This document shows positions 1,308 to 13,486 of a stretch of DNA of 35,821 nt, in pieces. This DNA comes from a virus (Duplodnaviria > Heunggongvirae > Uroviricota > Caudoviricetes): the IMG/VR virus record IMGVR_UViG_2698536369_000023. The stretch is one strand, 5' to 3'. The translations under genes were made by a program, and so were the position numbers. Position 1 is the stretch's first letter. Every line of letters starts with the position of its first letter. The notes under the pieces are model-generated. The model did not search any database. It was not told where the DNA came from and was given only the letters and a program-made list of their open reading frames with translations.

Positions 1308-3800
1308 TTAAAAATCAGCCTGACTCGGGATCAGTTTTTGCCAGATAGCTGAAACGTATTTTGCCTGATAACGGGCGTCATCAAGTGCATTATGGCGCTC
1401 ACCTTCGAATGGGGTAGCAGTTCTGGCATCGAAGTCTATGGCTTTCCCCAGCTCAACGATTGTGCGTACATCGCGATCGTTGTAGTAACGCCACGGGCAG
1501 GGGATCCCCTGCCGTTCGTATGAACGGCGCAAAATCGTGTTGTCGAAGTTGGCTCCATTTCCCCAGACCTGAACAAAAAACTCACCGGAGTTTTCGTCGA
1601 TAAATTCCCGCAATTGTAACAGTGCATCATCTAACGGGATTTCATCGGTCATAATGGCAGACTGCGCTTCACGTGATTGCTTCAGCCACCTTTTAATGAC
1701 GTCACGATCAATGACTCCGCCAGCAGTTTCCAGATCGATAGTCTTACTAAATTCCGGTCCCATATCTCCGGTTTGCGGATCGAAAAATATTGCACCTATT
1801 GAGATAATCGGGGCATCAGGATTTTTTCCCATGGTTTCAAGGTCGATCATTAGATGGTCACACGTCCTGCTGGTGGATGTGATTTCTTGATGACCGTTCA
1901 CCTTAATTGAGTGATCTGCCGTCTCGCCAGTTTCATTATCGCTATCGTGATGCTGATTGCCGCCAGTGTTCTCCTTGTGTGGATGTTCAGCGCCTTCCAT
2001 TTCCTCCGGATCATCTTCCTGAACTTCAGGCTGATACTCTTCATCGAATGTTTCCTGGTATGTTGCGTCGCCCATTACCGCGCCACAATCAGGGCAGTTG
2101 CCGCCGCCGGTCTGACCGCAGGCGGTGCAGACTTTTTCCACTTCCTGTTGCGCCACTGATTCAGGCTGTTTCGTTTCTGGCTCGTTTTGTAACGCATTTG
2201 GGCTGTTTTGTAACGCATTTGGGCTGTTTTGTTCCGCTTTCTGGTCGTTCTGTTCCGTTTCTTGCTGGTTCTGGTTCACAGAATCGCGGGTCTGGTTCCC
2301 CTTAACCCATTTCGGATCATTCGGGTCGCTAATCCCTTCAACAAATTCACCACGTGATACTGCAAGCAGTTCATCGGCGTCAGGCTGGCTGATATTGGCT
2401 GCCTGCATAATTTTGTTTACTTCGTCAGCGGTAACTTTTACTGACCCTGGTTGTGCGGTCGTGTCAGATGCACCAGTATTTTGTTGTGAACCTGAGTATG
2501 TACCGTTTTTGCGGGCGAAATATTCTTCTTTCGTGATTTCAGTAGCCCCAGCAGACAGCGCCTTATCCAGACCAGAAAGTTTGTTTGCGCGACCGTATTT
2601 TTCGCCATCCTTGTCGGTGAAGAGGAAGTAGAACGGCCCCTCACGTTCTACAGATGGTTCGACTTCCACTTTGCATTCGGTTTTTTCGTTGTCCGGAATT
2701 GCCGTTTCCACTGCATCAGTTTCTGGTACTGGCGACGAGAGAGTATCAGTTGCGCTCTGATTTGTTCCTTCATCTTCAAACACGCCCTTTGTAGTCAGGT
2801 ATTCAGTAATGTATTTGTTCAGTGCCACAGGGTCTTTGTGAATGTCGATCGGACGTTCACGGACAAGGCCAAAAATAGTCTGGCGGTCGTAGCGAAGGGC
2901 ATCAGGCTGTTTGCGCATTGATGCCGAGATACGCTTCCAGTCTTCGCGGTCGTTGTCGATAACTTCATTTTTTGCCCAGCGATGGATGCTGCCGTCAATG
3001 TTTCCGGCATCCACATCACCAGGCCAGAGAGCGTAGGCCAGTTCGTCATCCAGTGTTTTCCATGTCTGCTTGTATTCGCGATGAATGGCAGCAATGACCG
3101 GGTTGATTTTTCCTGTTGAATTTTCAGTGTGCTGTTGATTGGCTCTGGCGCGGGCGAGATCAACAACAGACGTGTATTTTCCGGCTTCCTTGCGTTCACC
3201 TTCGCGACGTTTTTTCCAGATGCGCATCTCTGCCTGAATTTCGGGCCATTTGGCACCAGGCTTACATTTATGCTTAACCCACCCGATGGCATGCAGCTTA
3301 AGCTCCGGATACATGGCGTTAACTTCTGGCATTTTCATCAACGCTTCAACGATATGTCCGTCGAATGTTGCCATGTCTTCCTGCAACAGTTCCTGCGCGC
3401 TAATCACCATATCAACGGTGATGTTTTCACATGTGTCGAACTTAACCATGACAGCGTTCTGTACTTCAGGGGCCAGCTTGTCAAAAGTGACGTTCATCGG
3501 ATCTGATTCAGTCTCAACCGGGACAAAGGAAGCAGACGCCTCATCCCAGCGGTTTTCCTGCATATATTCAGCATCCCAGGAATCTAGGGCAGGGCGGGGT
3601 ATACCGGGTTTATCCTCGCAGACAAGAAATTTATAAGCGCAGTCCTGAGCAGCCGGATAATGTTCCAGGAATTGCCAGTGAAATTTTGCGCGGGCGCGAC
3701 GTTCATCACCGGCTTCAATGGCAGTGGCTACAGCGACGGCACCTTCTTCCTTTATTGCCTGTTCGTCCGGAATGGCGGCGCAAATAAAGACTTTACTCAT
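1308..3800 (-). CDS. Large phage exonuclease (exodeoxyribonuclease VIII-like N-terminal region, Cys4 zinc ribbon, C-terminal DEDD-type 3'-5' exonuclease-like domain)
   Basis: 830-aa ORF. C-terminal motifs MIDLETMG ... HNALDDARYQA resemble DnaQ-like exonuclease motifs; CTACGQTGGGNCPDCGA is a zinc ribbon. No bet/recT/erf-type annealing protein is adjacent. Confidence 0.7.
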   Translation of the reverse strand: MSKVFICAAIPDEQAIKEEGAVAVATAIEAGDERRARAKFHWQFLEHYPAAQDCAYKFLVCEDKPGIPRPALDSWDAEYMQENRWDEASASFVPVETESDPMNVTFDKLAPEVQNAVMVKFDTCENITVDMVISAQELLQEDMATFDGHIVEALMKMPEVNAMYPELKLHAIGWVKHKCKPGAKWPEIQAEMRIWKKRREGERKEAGKYTSVVDLARARANQQHTENSTGKINPVIAAIHREYKQTWKTLDDELAYALWPGDVDAGNIDGSIHRWAKNEVIDNDREDWKRISASMRKQPDALRYDRQTIFGLVRERPIDIHKDPVALNKYITEYLTTKGVFEDEGTNQSATDTLSSPVPETDAVETAIPDNEKTECKVEVEPSVEREGPFYFLFTDKDGEKYGRANKLSGLDKALSAGATEITKEEYFARKNGTYSGSQQNTGASDTTAQPGSVKVTADEVNKIMQAANISQPDADELLAVSRGEFVEGISDPNDPKWVKGNQTRDSVNQNQQETEQNDQKAEQNSPNALQNSPNALQNEPETKQPESVAQQEVEKVCTACGQTGGGNCPDCGAVMGDATYQETFDEEYQPEVQEDDPEEMEGAEHPHKENTGGNQHHDSDNETGETADHSIKVNGHQEITSTSRTCDHLMIDLETMGKNPDAPIISIGAIFFDPQTGDMGPEFSKTIDLETAGGVIDRDVIKRWLKQSREAQSAIMTDEIPLDDALLQLREFIDENSGEFFVQVWGNGANFDNTILRRSYERQGIPCPWRYYNDRDVRTIVELGKAIDFDARTATPFEGERHNALDDARYQAKYVSAIWQKLIPSQADF
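2184..2232. repeat. In-frame 21-bp tandem repeat (about 2.3 copies) inside the exonuclease gene
   Basis: gttttgtaacgcatttgggct repeated head-to-tail; on the coding strand it gives the NSPNALQ NSPNALQ peptide repeat. Confidence 0.8.
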
Positions 3801-3879: not shown

Positions 3880-4083
3880 TTACGGCGCTGTTTTTAATCC
3901 TGCCGGGATTTCGTTATTGTCCATGTGAATAACTTTATCGACCGGATAACAGTTGCCGGGAATTTTCTGTTCGGTTGCTGCAGTCATACACTCCTGCATT
4001 GTCCTGTGAACACTGACTGCAATATCAACTGGCTCTCCGGAAACAAGAAAAACTGTCAGAACAAGCGCAAATGCAGAATTCAT
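3880..4083 (-). CDS. ydfD: YdfD-like small secreted/membrane protein (Qin-type dicB operon, last gene)
   Basis: Start at the internal Met MNSAFALVLTVFLVSG (signal-peptide-like) preceded by AAGGA N8 ATG; ATGA overlap with the dicB stop. The track ORF 3880-4137 is the N-extended version. Confidence 0.6.
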   Translation of the reverse strand: MNSAFALVLTVFLVSGEPVDIAVSVHRTMQECMTAATEQKIPGNCYPVDKVIHMDNNEIPAGLKTAP

Positions 4084-4268
4084 TGTGCACATCCTTTTGG
4101 CATCAGACGTAAACGAGCCAGCATTGAAACAATGCATATTTTATTTAATAGCTCCCGTTCTTGTTTTCTCTTGTTAATGGCATCTTCAGTAAATACAGGG
4201 TTACTGATAGTGACACCAATTTCAAAACAACCTTCAGACGTATTAACGTTTGGTAATAACGTTTTCAT
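4083..4268 (-). CDS. dicB: Cell division inhibitor DicB
   Basis: 62-aa product MKTLLPNVNTSEGCFEIGVTISNPVFTEDAINKRKQERELLNKICIVSMLARLRLMPKGCAQ matches recalled DicB; GAGGA N7 ATG RBS. The longer track ORF 4080-4373 is an N-terminal over-extension. Confidence 0.8.
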
Positions 4269-4437: not shown

Positions 4438-4495
4438 AAAAAGGGCGGCAGAGCAGTCACGGAGTAAAACTGATACCGCCAAACGTCACCAGAAA
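4438..4495 (-). ncRNA. dicF: DicF small regulatory RNA (ftsZ-targeting antisense sRNA)
   Basis: Reverse complement of 4438-4495 reads TTTCTGGTGACGTTTGGCGGTATCAGTTTTACTCCGTGACTGCTCTGCCGCCCTTTTT, matching recalled DicF; it lies between ydfC and dicB as in Qin. Confidence 0.75.
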
Positions 4496-5213: not shown

Positions 5214-5369
5214 TCACTCACCTGAGTTTCTTTCCAGCCAGCGACGGGCACCATTTTCGGTTTTAAACGTTTTGCTTTTGGTATACGTCATCACGGTGAA
5301 CGTACCGTCCTGGTTGGGGAACACGCCACATACCAGAGATTCGTTGTTGCCAAGATTGAGCATATCCAT
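5214..5369 (-). CDS. ydfA: YdfA-like protein (first gene of dicB operon)
   Basis: 51-aa product MDMLNLGNNESLVCGVFPNQDGTFTVMTYTKSKTFKTENGARRWLERNSGE with GAGG N5 ATG RBS. The track ORF extends to 5450; that alternative start cannot be excluded. Confidence 0.6.
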   Translation of the reverse strand: MDMLNLGNNESLVCGVFPNQDGTFTVMTYTKSKTFKTENGARRWLERNSGE

Positions 5370-5576
5370 GTTGACCTCATTTCCCCTTAACGCCGGGGTA
5401 GCGGAACAAAAACCTGCTGCATAGTTATTAAAGTTGAACCCTGCCGTCATGTTCTTACGCCTCGGGCTGGCTACTTAACCCCTGACCACTGCCGGGTAAC
5501 TCGAAGTATTGCCTGGCGTTCTGTGGGGCGGGGTGGGTTGATGAATGAACAATACCACTACTATTTAATTATGTAA

Positions 5577-5589
5577 ATAGCATTGCTAT
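5577..5589. promoter_or_regulatory. Candidate leftward operator (O_L-like): 13-bp palindrome ATAGCATTGCTAT upstream of the dicB operon
   Basis: Perfect inverted half-sites ATAGCA / TGCTAT around one central base; the same TGCTAT half-site recurs twice in the repressor-cro intergenic region. Confidence 0.45.
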
Positions 5590-5600
5590 TATCGTGGCAA

Positions 5601-5625
5601 GAAAAAAACCACCCGAAGGTGGTTG
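5601..5625 (-). terminator. Rho-independent terminator ending the repressor-antitoxin-toxin transcript
   Basis: Minus-strand hairpin AACCACC-TTCG-GGTGGTT followed by a run of 7 T, 14 nt downstream of the toxin stop. Confidence 0.65.
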
Positions 5626-5638
5626 TTGACAGGAAGGA

Positions 5639-5929
5639 TTAACAGGTTTTGTTTGGATACTGTCTTCGTGAGTGAACTACATTTACGATCTCGATGTTAG
5701 ATGCTGTTACTCGGTAAAGTATTATGTAGTTAGGATGAGTCACTATCTCACGAAGACTTGGAACTCTTTCGCTCGGTGGGTACAGATAAGGGTGTTCAGT
5801 AAGTGACAAAACTGATGTTTCAATGCGTATTTTTAGTCTACGTGCAGCGGGAGGGTTTTCCTTAGCAATATAGGCTACGATCTGACGTAAATCATCACGT
5901 GCAGAAGGTAGCCATAAAATGGGCAGCAT
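5639..5929 (-). CDS. parE: ParE/RelE-superfamily toxin (ParE2-like)
   Basis: 96-aa ORF with ParE-like sequence (plasmid stabilization toxin family); ATGA overlap with the upstream antitoxin. Confidence 0.75.
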   Translation of the reverse strand: MLPILWLPSARDDLRQIVAYIAKENPPAARRLKIRIETSVLSLTEHPYLYPPSERVPSLREIVTHPNYIILYRVTASNIEIVNVVHSRRQYPNKTC

Positions 5930-6120
5930 TACTCACTCCTGTTCGTTGCAGCTAATTGAGCAATAAGGTTTTCCATTTCAGCCATTACTTCGTCATGTGG
6001 AATTGCAGGACGGGGATCTGAGAGGCTTGCTGCCACTTTGGTTCGCAACCATTCGTTATAGCTGTTTTCTTGTTCGACTGTTTCAAATTCAGAAATTATC
6101 GGGGAAAGGGCTGTACTCAT
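5929..6120 (-). CDS. paaA: PaaA2-like antitoxin (63 aa)
   Basis: 63-aa acidic ORF directly upstream of and overlapping the ParE-like toxin; motif SEFETVEQENSYNEWLRTKV resembles recalled PaaA2 of the O157 paaR2-paaA2-parE2 system. Confidence 0.65.
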   Translation of the reverse strand: MSTALSPIISEFETVEQENSYNEWLRTKVAASLSDPRPAIPHDEVMAEMENLIAQLAATNRSE

Positions 6121-6137
6121 GTTTTTACCTCCTCAGA

Positions 6138-6638
6138 TTAGGCGCGACGACCCTTTTGCGCAGCTAGCCATCGCGCAACGATTTCTTCAATTGATTCTTT
6201 TTTCTCCTTCATTTCCTTAAGCATTTTCTCTTTATCTTCTTTGGGGAAAGCCCTGAACGTCTGGAGCAAATCCCGCTCCATGGGGTCTATATTAAACGGA
6301 AGTTCGTTTTCCGATTGTTCCATATCTGCAGATATAGTGACAACATTGTCCTCCCCAGATTCTTGGGGATACATCCTTACAATTTGTAACAACTCGGCCA
6401 TATCTGGTCTGATTGACTCGGGAGGAACTTGCAGCAACCCTGCGAACTTGATAACAGCCTCAAGATTTAAAGGTGTCTGACCATTTAGATAATGGCTTAC
6501 AGCTCCCTGTGTCGAAAATCCCAGAATTTCTGCCGCACGCTCTTGGGTTAACCCTAGTTGATTTTTTTTCGCCGTCCAGATTTCTTTCAGTCTCTGGGCG
6601 GCTTGCAGGTCGATCTCTGACAGGGATTTTCTTTTCAT
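6138..6638 (-). CDS. paaR: HTH (XRE/Cro-C1 type) transcriptional regulator; PaaR2-like and probably the prophage immunity repressor (no LexA-type peptidase domain)
   Basis: 166 aa with N-terminal HTH (LGLTQERAAEILGFSTQGAVSHYLNG); divergent from a Cro-like gene; 17-nt gap to the antitoxin; the ATG has almost no SD spacing (possibly leaderless). Confidence 0.65.
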   Translation of the reverse strand: MKRKSLSEIDLQAAQRLKEIWTAKKNQLGLTQERAAEILGFSTQGAVSHYLNGQTPLNLEAVIKFAGLLQVPPESIRPDMAELLQIVRMYPQESGEDNVVTISADMEQSENELPFNIDPMERDLLQTFRAFPKEDKEKMLKEMKEKKESIEEIVARWLAAQKGRRA

Positions 6639-6674
6639 ACCTTCAATTCTAATAAGATTATTAATCTCTTTGAA

Positions 6675-6687
6675 ATAGTGATGCTAT
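6675..6687. promoter_or_regulatory. Candidate operator O_R site 1 (ATAGTGATGCTAT)
   Basis: 13-bp near-palindrome sharing the TGCTAT half-site with the O_L candidate; ends on the first base of the proposed -35 of the rightward promoter. Confidence 0.4.
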
Positions 6688-6715
6688 TTACTTTTAAAAA
6701 TAACAATGCTATTAA
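6687..6715 (+). promoter_or_regulatory. Putative P_R-like sigma70 promoter for the cro-like operon
   Basis: -35 TTTACT (6687-6692), 17-nt spacer, -10 TATTAA (6710-6715), followed by RBS GAGGTG and ATG at 6746. Confidence 0.35.
6700..6712. promoter_or_regulatory. Candidate operator O_R site 2 (ATAACAATGCTAT)
   Basis: 13-bp near-palindrome 25 bp from site 1; overlaps the proposed -10 element. Confidence 0.4.
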
Positions 6716-6745
6716 TGATCGTGATGACATCACATGAGGTGAACA

Positions 6746-7021
6746 ATGAATCTTGGAGAATATTTGCATCATTCCGGTATAACTCAGAAGCATTTTGCTG
6801 AAATTGTTGGGGTAACCCAAGGGATGGTAAGCCATGTCATTACCGGACGGGCGAAACTTACGGGGAAAAAAATTTTACGCTGGTGCGAAGCAACAGGCTG
6901 GATAGTAACTCCGCACGAGATTGATGGCAGTACTTATCCCAACCCAACCGACGGCTTACCTGTCGAGTATCAGGCTAACACACAACCAGAGGCGGGGGTG
7001 ATTCATGAAAATCAAGCATGA
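6746..7021 (+). CDS. Cro-like HTH regulator (YdaS/Cro family)
   Basis: 91 aa with HTH motif QKHFAEIVGVTQGMVSHVITG; divergent from the repressor; RBS GAGGTG. Confidence 0.7.
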   Translation: MNLGEYLHHSGITQKHFAEIVGVTQGMVSHVITGRAKLTGKKILRWCEATGWIVTPHEIDGSTYPNPTDGLPVEYQANTQPEAGVIHENQA

Positions 7022-7430
7022 ACACATCCGCATGGCAATGAATGCCTGGGCGCATCCGGACGGCGAAAAAGTACCGGCTGCGAAAATTACCAAAGCGTAT
7101 TTCGAGCTGGGAATGACGTTCCCGGAACTGTATGACGACAGCCATCCGGAAGCCCTGGCTCGCAATACTCAGAAAATTTTCCGCTGGGTGGAGAAAGACA
7201 CCCCTGATGCGGTTAAAAAAATTCAGGCGTTGTTACCAGCTATCGAAAAAGCAATGCCACCTCTGCTGGTGGCCCGAATGCGCAGCCACAGTTCTGAATA
7301 TTACCGTGAGATCGTCGAACGGAGGGATCGGCTGGTGAAGGATGTCGATGATTTTGTTGCGTCAGCGGTTGTTTTGTATGACCAGATGAATCGCGGCGGC
7401 CCGGCAGGGAATGCTGTGGTGATGCACTAA
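7005..7430 (+). CDS. YdaT-family protein (CII-like position)
   Basis: 141 aa starting MKIKHEHI..., matching the recalled Rac YdaT N-terminus; overlaps the cro-like gene end by 17 nt. Confidence 0.55.
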   Translation: MKIKHEHIRMAMNAWAHPDGEKVPAAKITKAYFELGMTFPELYDDSHPEALARNTQKIFRWVEKDTPDAVKKIQALLPAIEKAMPPLLVARMRSHSSEYYREIVERRDRLVKDVDDFVASAVVLYDQMNRGGPAGNAVVMH

Positions 7431-7452
7431 AAGCACGGTGTTCGGGGGTTTT

Positions 7453-8415
7453 ATGAGCAGCAAGCTTCATGGTCTTGTCTGGGAAGGGTGCGCCTTTACC
7501 GGCATGATCTTATCCAGGGTGGCGGTTATGGCCCGTCTTGCAGACTACAGCAATGACGAGGGCGTGTCATGGCCTGCCATTGAAACTATCCGGCGTCAGA
7601 TCGGTGCAAGAAGTGAATCCACAGTGAAATCGGCTATTGCAGAACTGGCGAAAGAGGGCTGGCTGACGAAGGAAGAGCGTAAGGTCGGTGGGCGTAATGT
7701 AAGCAATATCTATCGGCTTAATGTGGAAAAACTCGAAGCAGCTGCGGCGGCGGCGCGTGAGTCATATAAACCGAAAAGAAAAATTAGCCCGGCAAAAAAT
7801 GACCCGTTAACAGTTGACCCGTCAAATATTGACCCCTCAACGGTTGACCCGTCAAATTTTGATGGATCAACTGTTGATAAAAAACTGCCGATTAGGGGGG
7901 CGATGATTGACCCCGATCCGTCAGTATTAAAACCTGATCCGTCAGATAAAAGATCTTCTTGTCCGGACGCTTCGCAACCGGACCCGCAGACGGCTGAACA
8001 GGATTTTTTAACCCGACACCCTGACGCGGTTGTGTTCAGTGCGAAAAAACGCCAGTGGGGAAGTCAGGAAGATTTGGTGTGCGCACAGTGGATCTGGGGA
8101 CGAATCGTGAGTCTTTACGAGCAGGCGGCCAGCTATGATGGCGAGATCACTAGACCGAAAGAACCCAACTGGACAGCATGGGCCAATGACGTTCGCACAA
8201 TGCGGATGCTGGATGGCAGAACTCACAGACAAATTTGTGAAATGTTTGGGCGTCTCCAGCGGGATTCGTTCTGGGTAAAAAACATCATGAGTCCGGCAAA
8301 ACTCCGGGAAAAATGGGATGAACTGGTTATCCGCCTGGGGCGTTCGCCTGCGCAGCGTTGCGTGAATCACATTTCTGAACCGGACACTGAAATACCGCCG
8401 GGATTCAGGGGGTGA
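7453..8415 (+). CDS. Phage replication initiation protein (O-like) with origin iterons embedded in the coding sequence
   Basis: ORF with GGGGG RBS before ATG 7453 (the track starts at a GTG at 7438); N-terminal winged-helix-like region; iteron array inside the gene; followed by a DnaC-like loader. Confidence 0.65.
   Translation: MSSKLHGLVWEGCAFTGMILSRVAVMARLADYSNDEGVSWPAIETIRRQIGARSESTVKSAIAELAKEGWLTKEERKVGGRNVSNIYRLNVEKLEAAAAAARESYKPKRKISPAKNDPLTVDPSNIDPSTVDPSNFDGSTVDKKLPIRGAMIDPDPSVLKPDPSDKRSSCPDASQPDPQTAEQDFLTRHPDAVVFSAKKRQWGSQEDLVCAQWIWGRIVSLYEQAASYDGEITRPKEPNWTAWANDVRTMRMLDGRTHRQICEMFGRLQRDSFWVKNIMSPAKLREKWDELVIRLGRSPAQRCVNHISEPDTEIPPGFRG
7799..7885. repeat. Replication origin iterons: six approximately 15-bp repeats (TTGACCCGTCAAAT-like, each internally palindromic TTGAC..GTCAA) followed by an AT-rich segment
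   Basis: Repeat starts near 7799, 7814, 7829, 7844, 7859 and 7874 at 15-bp periodicity, then ttgataaaaaact; analogous to ori-lambda inside gene O. Confidence 0.7.
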
Positions 8416-12680: not shown

Positions 12681-13486
12681 CAACATTTACCGACGACGAC
12701 AAGAAACTAATTAAAGAAATCAAAGAGCGTATCAGCAGCCCGGAGGTTCGAGACGATATTGAGCGCCGGGCTTATGAAATAGCGTTAGCCTCGCTGGAAG
12801 CAGAGCCGGTGGCATGGCTGCATTCAGACAATGGCTTAGGTATTCCGGCAATAACGAGGAGTAAAAACATTGCTGACAGTTGGTTATCAAAGAGCTGGTA
12901 TGTTCAGCCGCTATATATAGCCAAGCCAGTGCCGGTGGAGCCAGATGCTCGTCCGTCTTTAAATAATGGCATAGTCGGCTTTGATGAAGGCTGGAACGCT
13001 TGCCGCGCCGCCATGATTCATGCCGGAAACTTTCGGGAAAACTTGAATTCGTCAACCAATAATTTTCGGGAAATTGCGGAAACGTCAATCAACTCTCCGG
13101 TAGTTCCTGGTGAGGTGTTGTCCGCAATCCGGGAGGTTGCCAGGGTTCGTGCCGATTTCGATGATTTTGACGGTGACAGGCGAGGTATCGGTGATTGTCT
13201 GAATGAGTCTGAGCAAGAGCTTATCGTTACCATTAACAAATATGCCAGTCAGATTGCAGCAAAGCCGCCGCAGGAGGAGAAGAGTGGGAACGCTGACTGT
13301 ACCGCCACTTCTGGTAAAACTGACAATCCACAAGCATCCGGAAAACAGGTTGATGAATTAACCATGTTGGTTAAGCGATTAGCCAGTTCGTTAAAAAGCG
13401 TCAATAAATCAAGTAAGCTGCCTGATAAGGCGATGGATTATCTTTTGCGGAACGGACTGGTAAGTGTGGAGGGGAGGGGACGATGA
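12677..13486 (+). CDS. Hypothetical protein (nin-region)
   Basis: 269-aa ORF overlapping the previous stop by 4 nt. Confidence 0.5.
   Translation: MTTFTDDDKKLIKEIKERISSPEVRDDIERRAYEIALASLEAEPVAWLHSDNGLGIPAITRSKNIADSWLSKSWYVQPLYIAKPVPVEPDARPSLNNGIVGFDEGWNACRAAMIHAGNFRENLNSSTNNFREIAETSINSPVVPGEVLSAIREVARVRADFDDFDGDRRGIGDCLNESEQELIVTINKYASQIAAKPPQEEKSGNADCTATSGKTDNPQASGKQVDELTMLVKRLASSLKSVNKSSKLPDKAMDYLLRNGLVSVEGRGR

Follow-up and report, generated by a model that had tools for sequence, protein, structure and literature searches.

Paired palindromes as probable repressor operators in the immunity region of the Caudoviricetes record IMGVR_UViG_2698536369_000023

The virus record IMGVR_UViG_2698536369_000023 (35,821 nucleotides [nt]; this whole stretch is referred to here as the window) contains an immunity region in which a gene for a 166-amino acid (aa) repressor and a gene for a 91-aa Cro-like protein are divergently transcribed, and the repressor operon is followed by a leftward operon that includes dicB. 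Palindromes of the form ATAGCA-N-TGCTAT recur at both ends of this region, and these are very probably the operators of a lambda-type immunity switch, bound by the repressor and silencing both early operons. The original prediction, made from this sequence, had proposed such an arrangement, with one repressor acting at rightward operators (OR) that overlap the rightward promoter (PR) and at leftward operators (OL) upstream of the dicB operon, and it is borne out by comparison, in that homologous loci have the paired sites and heteroimmune loci are without them. Lambda and the cryptic prophage CP-933P have made systems of this kind familiar, and what is new here is a different DNA-binding domain and a different operator.

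Paired sites at OL and OR

The four palindromes of the original prediction are all present in the window, namely ATAGCATTGCTAT (5577-5589), ATAGTGATGCTAT (6675-6687), ATAACAATGCTAT (6700-6712), and GTGATGACATCAC (6721-6733). A search of the whole 35.8-kb window with ATAGCANTGCTAT, allowing up to two mismatches, yields five matches where 1.2 are expected, and four of the five form two pairs, each with a spacing of exactly 25 bp (5552/5577 and 6675/6700); the strong site at 5552-5564 (ATACCACTACTAT on the plus strand) was absent from the original prediction. Two pairs at 24 to 26 bp were not reproduced in any of 1,000 dinucleotide-preserving shuffles of the window, and a single pair arose in only one of them. 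The 13-mer ATAGCA-N-TGCTAT is the core of a longer symmetric operator of 15 to 17 bp, with a 15-bp form AATA-RCA-N-TGY-TATT and an overall consensus of A-AATA-R-C-A-N-T-G-Y-TATT-K, drawn from 40 sites (35 unique) across ten distinct loci including the window. When a matrix built from the other loci only is applied to the window, the four sites rank 1 to 4 with 17.2 to 24.7 bits, and the next match has 12.3 bits. That fifth-ranked match, at 12830, is unpaired, falls within an open reading frame (ORF), and departs from the invariant AATA block, and was set aside as a chance occurrence.

The operators and promoters of the region, including the promoter of the repressor gene (PRM), are as follows, with matrix scores in bits.

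5549-5577, minus strand: PL, the leftward promoter; TTTACA (5577..5572), 17 nt, TG-g-TATTGT (5554..5549); from a promoter scan, with a TG extended -10
5551-5565: OL proximal operator AATACCACTACTATT, core 5552-5564; overlaps the PL -10; 17.2 to 17.7 bits; 25 bp from the 5576-5590 site
5576-5590: OL distal operator AATAGCATTGCTATT; perfectly palindromic over its 15 bp and adjoining the PL -35; 24.9 bits, the top score in the window
6646-6674, minus strand: PRM; TTCAAA (6674..6669), 17 nt, TAGAAT (6651..6646); from the promoter scan
6651-6665: weak OR3-like site AATAAGATTATTAAT; inside PRM, 23 bp from OR2 (6674-6688); 8.0 bits
6674-6688: OR2-like operator AATAGTGATGCTATT; lies between the -35 elements of PR and PRM and adjoins both; 20.3 bits
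6687-6715, plus strand: PR; TTTACT (6687-6692), 17 nt, TG-c-TATTAA (6710-6715); read by eye from the sequence
6699-6713: OR1-like operator AATAACAATGCTATT; overlaps the PR extended -10; 23.8 bits
6721-6733: perfect 13-bp palindrome GTGATGACATCAC; placed where the PR transcript is predicted to begin

PL and PR follow one plan, with one operator adjoining the -35 and a second, 25 bp downstream, supplying the TGnTAT of the extended -10. PL reads leftward into a DUF1391/ydfA-like gene, DicF, and dicB; PR has a predicted start near 6722, and the palindromes at 6675-6687 and 6700-6712 do overlap its -35 and -10, as had been predicted. PR is not listed by the promoter scan because the sixth base of its -10 is A rather than T, but it aligns with PL and is conserved with it and across loci. 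PR and PRM stand back to back in the repressor/cro intergenic region of 107 bp (6639-6745), a layout kept in all homologous loci. Of the layout first proposed, the overlap with PR and the placing of operators at both ends stand, and the sites to be added to it are a second one at OL and a weak third one at OR, inside PRM.

Conservation was assessed with repressor homologues and their genomic contexts, collected from the protein database and by contig look-ups, which together gave the ten distinct loci; a scan of the contig collection with the repressor found no relative. Repressors of the other nine loci are 46 to 89% identical to that of the window, and apart from the sites the intergenic DNA has diverged. 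All ten loci have pairs with a spacing of 24 to 26 bp in two places, one between the repressor and cro genes and the other directly following the terminator of the repressor operon, where the pair covers a PL-like promoter. A motif comparison with related prophages had been put forward with the original prediction, and ATAGCA-type sites are kept in all ten loci. The OR1-like operator is present in all homologous loci and is nearly invariant in close relatives, the OR2-like operator is kept in all of them, an equivalent of the OL proximal operator (the second OL site) is found in 10 of 10, and the OL distal operator is kept downstream of the repressor-operon terminator in most. The pairs hold whatever cargo is carried, be it PaaA/ParE, HipA_2 with DUF3037, HigB/HigA, or none. 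Two heteroimmune PaaR-type loci of the same architecture, L002 (with the O157:H7 PaaR paralogue) and L025 (with CP-933P-type PaaR2), give no more than 5.5 bits with the matrix, and L025 has TTTAGTAA/CACTAAAC repeats instead of AATAGCA-N-TGCTATT.

The OR3-like site ranks seventh of ~35,800 window positions, and its centre is at approximately -20 relative to the repressor ATG, the predicted PRM start. Equivalents lie 23 to 24 bp from OR2 in nine of the ten distinct loci with 8.0 to 17.2 bits and are the fifth-best match in seven of the nine other loci, the OR3-like sites having been left out of the construction of the matrix. All of them end in ..TAAT where the strong sites have ..TATT. On this comparison OR appears to be tripartite, with spacings of 25 and 23 bp, and OL to have two recognizable sites. 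A perfect palindrome, AGATTATTAATCT, is also present in the PRM spacer at 6655-6667, overlapping the weak OR3-like site. It was considered as the third site itself, but it is limited to the close E. coli lineage, being retained only in close relatives and there with a different base at its centre. The AATA..TAAT site that it overlaps is found again in distant loci and is preferred.

The inner left half of OR2 (6678-6682) comprises the most variable columns among intergenic regions that are otherwise 90 to 100% identical, and close relatives have GTGAT, GTAAT, GTGGC, GCGAT, GCTAT, GCAGT, GCATC, and others at this position, a variation that may stem from relaxed constraint or from tuning of the switch.

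The palindrome GTGATGACATCAC at 6721-6733 fares differently from the others. It had been proposed as a site for Cro or a second regulator, and this does not survive comparison: two loci from the 72 complete E. coli genomes that have this intergenic region (L017 and L018) read GTAATGACATCAC instead, and yet their repressor (WP_000824162.1) and Cro (WP_001048458.1) are identical to those of the window, and GTGATGACATCAC is absent from all more distant homologues, which have unrelated sequence there. There is no second copy with up to one mismatch in the window, either at OL or elsewhere, and perfect 6-N-6 palindromes are common, with 18 in the window against ~8.7 expected. A lineage-specific site for a second regulator, or a hairpin that stabilizes the 5' end of the transcript, would suit a perfect 13-bp palindrome at the predicted PR +1, and its GTGATG does recur within OR2. 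However, the predicted fold of the PR leader RNA is weak (-2.7 kcal/mol) and leaves the palindrome unused, no 5' untranslated region (UTR) hairpin or other structure is conserved across the loci, and the candidate site for the CII-like protein YdaT has a different position and sequence. Both of these roles are very unlikely, and GTGATGACATCAC is probably incidental, a product of chance.

The repressor, the Cro-like protein, and a proposed switch

The first ~90 residues of the repressor match the lambda cI N-terminal domain, including the basic arm (PDB 1LMB, E 2e-9). An AlphaFold (AF2) model built with 16 sequences (mean predicted local distance difference test score [pLDDT] of 77) has five N-terminal helices, a disordered linker at residues 90 to 114, and a two-helix C-terminal part, and Foldseek aligns its N-terminal domain with 1LMB at a TM score of 0.86 and a root mean square deviation of 1.9 Å. 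Pfam identifies only HTH_3 and HTH_31 in the protein, with no S24 peptidase domain. The last 44 aa have 55% identity to PaaR2 of CP-933P (E 3e-16) and are similar also to the L002 paralogue; BLASTP finds no homology between the N-terminal DNA-binding domain and PaaR2, the alignment being confined to those 44 residues. The repressor thus appears, from sequence and model, to be a lambda-cI-like N-terminal domain joined to a PaaR2-type C-terminal module.

The helix-turn-helix (HTH) segment GF.TQGAVSHY.N is invariant in all repressor homologues, and the TQGMVSHV of the Cro-like protein resembles the TQGAVSHY of the repressor, with TQGxVSH as the common motif. Because this helix motif is common to both, the repressor and the Cro-like protein probably read the same half-sites. 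Cro-like proteins of the homologous loci are 47 to 83% identical and co-occur with the repressor type, and the heteroimmune L002 repressor/Cro pair instead has QQTV.QW in common. Residues E34 and D38 of lambda cI are its positive-control residues, and the repressor has E33 and E37 at these positions, with E or D in all homologues.

The repressor transcript is predicted to be leaderless, starting at the A of the ATG, because the spacing between the -10 and the ATG is conserved, there is no shared Shine-Dalgarno sequence, and the paaR2 mRNA is leaderless by 5' RACE (rapid amplification of cDNA ends; PMC8630535). In the window, there are 7 nt between the PRM -10 and the first base of the repressor start codon (A6638), and a TAnAAT-type -10 sits 6 to 7 nt 5' of the ATG in all ten distinct loci; the bases between the two vary, and no common Shine-Dalgarno sequence was found among them in these loci. 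Gene calling had placed the start of the repressor ORF further upstream in two loci, but their MKRK start aligns with the others. The leaderless, PRM-type mRNA of the original prediction is supported by this geometry and by the paaR2 precedent, from which we infer it for this locus.

These features fit a switch that may operate as follows. Repressor dimers would occupy the two-fold symmetric sites of 15 to 17 bp, and the Cro-like protein would probably use the same sites. Repressor at OR1 (6699-6713) and OR2 (6674-6688) would cover the extended -10 and the edge of the -35 and so block PR, while occupancy of the OL pair (5551-5565 and 5576-5590) would block PL and leave the ydfA-like/DicF/dicB operon silent. 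Relative to the PRM start, the centre of OR1 is at approximately -68 and that of OR2 at approximately -43, and repressor bound at OR2, beside the PRM -35, could activate PRM as lambda cI does. OR3 (6651-6665), being inside PRM, would allow excess repressor or the Cro-like protein to shut PRM off. The leaderless repressor transcript would extend across paaA and parE as far as the terminator (5607-5624), carrying the toxin-antitoxin (TA) pair along in the manner of lambda rexAB. The PaaR-type C-terminal module, rather than an S24 domain, would provide cooperativity and possibly looping between OL and OR over ~1.1 kb; with no S24 domain, neither RecA-mediated self-cleavage nor a response to RecA is expected.

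Alternative readings of the sites

Several points weigh against this account of the operators. PR is a poor match to consensus (4/6 and 4/6) and is rescued only by its TG extended -10; the window's OR3 is a weak site (8 bits) that departs from consensus at 5 of 14 specified positions, and the conservation of OR3 could stem from constraints on the PRM spacer and -10 instead of from binding. The filter used in picking sites itself contributes part of the apparent ATA...TAT invariance, and the operator sequence variants were not found in the literature searched, apart from one unrelated primer match. The homology with PaaR2 is limited to 44 C-terminal residues, so that oligomerization and looping are suggested by analogy, and repressor sites and Cro sites are inseparable from sequence alone.

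In another reading, the palindromes are recognized by one regulator only, such as the Cro-like (YdaS-type) protein, with the repressor using another sequence such as direct repeats, a possibility debated for PaaR2. The Cro-like protein does always accompany the motif, and the authors of the CP-933P study left exact sequences unassigned and noted two overlapping repeat classes (PMC8630535). However, the aligned OR and OL regions yield no second conserved repeat class, the N-terminal domain of the repressor is a dimeric HTH of the lambda-cI type, with an invariant recognition helix in every locus that has the motif, a 15-bp two-fold site with half-sites ~11 bp apart suits such a dimer, and the repressor and Cro have the TQGxVSH helix motif in common; separate sites for the two proteins are improbable. 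It is highly improbable that the sites have no operator function at all and that duplicated or recombined promoter DNA, or chance palindromes in AT-rich sequence, explain the similarity of 5550-5590 to 6674-6715. The region is AT-rich, and PL and PR do have flanking bases in common beyond the palindromes (ATGCTATTTAC), but the pairs were not recovered by shuffling, distant loci conserve the symmetric AATA/TATT blocks while spacers and 5' UTRs diverge, and heteroimmune loci with the same gene layout carry different repeats.

Because the sites flank the TA operon in the window, they might also be taken for autoregulatory operators of the PaaA-ParE complex, in the style of a classical type II TA system, and the probability of this is extremely small. 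The same sites are present in loci without PaaA/ParE, which have HipA_2 cargo, HigBA cargo, or no cargo, and this effectively refutes the TA-operator reading; moreover, PaaA2 is without a DNA-binding motif, and CP-933P is under the control of PaaR2, YdaS, and YdaT (PMC8630535).

A broader extension of the repressor-operator reading would regard the lambda-type N-terminal domain, the AATAGCA-N-TGCTATT operators, and the matching Cro as a portable specificity cassette, repeatedly joined to varied repressor C termini (the PaaR-type helical module, a version that has a second HTH domain, and perhaps S24, the Stx2-converting phage F039 being an example) and to co-transcribed toxin or defence cargo, with the hypervariability of the OR2 inner half reflecting selection that tunes the set-point of a purely bistable switch independent of SOS. 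This is a speculative proposal and rather unlikely to hold as a whole.

Genes of the region and related systems

The genes and other features around the operators are listed below.

4080-4268, minus strand: dicB
4443-4494, minus strand: DicF RNA (Rfam RF00039, 76.7 bits)
left of 5577: DUF1391/ydfA-like gene
5607-5624, minus strand: intrinsic terminator at the end of the repressor-paaA-parE operon, a short way upstream of OL and PL
5639-5929, minus strand: ParE-family toxin gene, 96 aa (Pfam PF05016, E 6.6e-18; PDB 5CW7 ParE2, E 2.6e-35)
5929-6120, minus strand: PaaA2-family antitoxin gene, 63 aa (Pfam PF21217, E 1e-21; PDB 3ZBE PaaA2, E 2.5e-22)
6138-6638, minus strand: repressor gene, 166 aa (Pfam HTH_3; lambda-cI-like N-terminal domain)
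6746-7021, plus strand: Cro-like (YdaS-type) HTH gene, 91 aa (Pfam HTH_3), divergent from the repressor gene
6998-7015: YdaT operator candidate GTGATTCATGAAAATCAA, at the end of the cro-like gene and overlapping the ydaT start
7005-7430, plus strand: YdaT (CII-equivalent) gene, 141 aa (Pfam PF06254; ~96% identical to PDB 8BT1, E 3.5e-90)

The window has the operon order of regulator, PaaA2-family antitoxin, and ParE toxin, and the PaaA2 antitoxin has no DNA-binding domain (PMC8630535). An equivalent of the terminator, with a hairpin and a T-run, is seen in most homologous loci. Through PL, the repressor presumably controls two cell-division inhibitors, DicF and dicB. The sequence GTGATTCATGAAAATCAA is one mismatch from TTGATTN6AATCAA and is the only match in the window with up to two mismatches; TTGATTN6AATCAA is the YdaT operator footprinted in CP-933P, where this OM site has the equivalent position at the end of the cro-like gene (PMC9986795), and GTGATTCATGAAAATCAA is a probable operator for the CII-like YdaT here.

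The closest experimentally described system is that of CP-933P/Sp12 of E. coli O157:H7 (Jurenas et al. 2021, PMC8630535), which has the same gene order of repressor, PaaA, ParE, terminator, and PL, with divergent YdaS (Cro) and YdaT (CII). In CP-933P, PaaR2 plays the part of cI, YdaS that of Cro, and YdaT that of CII; PaaR2 and YdaS footprint the intergenic region and repress PR and PL, and low PaaR2 activates PRM. Operator binding by repressor and Cro with bistability has been demonstrated for this homologue only. PaaR2 forms octamers and is without a self-cleavage peptidase motif, and the operator repeats are in the intergenic region and at the PL promoter downstream of the TA genes (all PMC8630535). 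The window resembles CP-933P in the back-to-back placing of PR and PRM within ~100 bp of intergenic DNA, in its leaderless repressor start (predicted in the window), in operator repeats common to OR and OL, and in a repressor without an S24 domain; YdaT is ~96% identical and an OM-type site is present, ParE and PaaA are clear homologues, and the repressor C-terminal 44 aa have the 55% identity described above. The two differ in that PaaR2 (123 aa) has a short HTH where the window's repressor (166 aa) has a lambda-cI-type N-terminal domain, the DNA-binding domains being unrelated, in that the CP-933P operators are GTTTAGTAA-type repeats (consensus half-site) where the window has AATAGCA-N-TGCTATT, and in the recognition helix of the window's Cro-like protein. 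Because the DNA-binding domain, the operators, and the Cro recognition helix all differ, the window's element is presumably heteroimmune to CP-933P.

Similarity to lambda lies in the repressor N-terminal domain (~37 to 38% identical, with a five-helix fold and an N-terminal basic arm), in two-fold symmetric operators of similar length, and in a tripartite OR, with centre spacings of 25 and 23 bp in the window and 24 and 23 bp in lambda. As in lambda, a weak OR3 falls within PRM and OR2 stands beside its -35; a leaderless mRNA is predicted for the repressor, whose transcript also carries accessory genes. The operator sequence differs from that of lambda, OL of the window has two recognizable sites and not three, the CII role is filled by YdaT, and a short helical PaaR-type C-terminal module replaces the S24 self-cleaving dimerization domain, such that SOS induction by RecA is not expected. 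The phage 434 repressor and Cro have near-identical recognition helices and common operators, and the TQGAVSHY and TQGMVSHV of the window are similarly alike, although this is an analogy only, with no sequence relation to the 434 operators. With its ydfA-like gene, DicF, and dicB, the leftward operon is of the type in the Qin prophage of E. coli K-12, but the repressor and operators are not DicA-type and the immunity module has been exchanged.

This intergenic region is carried by 72 of 5,426 complete E. coli genomes, and E. albertii, Shigella, Salmonella, and metagenomes also have relatives of the immunity type. The immunity region was not recovered from any phage when the phage collection was searched by megablast, and phage homologues were limited to the N-terminal domain, with up to 52% identity. 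For an immunity type of this prevalence, the comparison gives the operator sequence and a full map of OR and OL, and it suggests that a prophage repressor also controls the DicF and dicB cell-division inhibitors and a ParE toxin module. It also provides a natural comparison for the CP-933P switch, with a like circuit and CII-like YdaT and a swapped DNA-binding specificity, and a lambda-cI-type DNA-binding domain with a new half-site that is useful for specificity studies; the understanding of such switches is unchanged.

The slot between the repressor gene and the terminator and PL contains varied cargo across the homologous loci (L003 to L015) with constant flanking operators, and has the look of a hotspot for cargo, similar to rexAB in lambda. 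Some homologous repressors are longer (240 to 255 aa; P0014, P0018, P0019, P0020, and P0022, in L007 to L010 and L015) and have an inserted second HTH domain, which separates the lambda-like domain from the PaaR C-terminal module and resembles the N terminus of the O157 PaaR paralogue of L002. The L002 locus itself has long inverted repeats (ACAATAAAAAACTGT ... ACAGTTTTT.ATTGT) at both ends, on the PL side and in the repressor/cro intergenic region (2160-2197 and 3193-3232). L002-type AACTGT/ACAGTT repeats were not found near the promoters of the double-HTH homologues, where only AATAGCA-type sites are present. The Stx2-converting phage F039 (L016, LC710660.1) has an S24-type cI with an N-terminal domain 52% identical to that of the window, and its cI/cro intergenic region has one strong related site, AATAGTCTAGCTATT, at 2442-2456 and adjoining TTGACA, which suggests that the DNA-binding domain and operator type may be common to S24-type and PaaR-type repressors.

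From ~5250 to 8400 the window is collinear with, and almost identical to, E. coli FDAARGOS_401 (L001), except for a patch of 18 substitutions in ydaT. The best identity for the ydaT of the window among complete E. coli genomes is 96.2%, and the patch (compared stretch 7000-7400) suggests a small recombination event.

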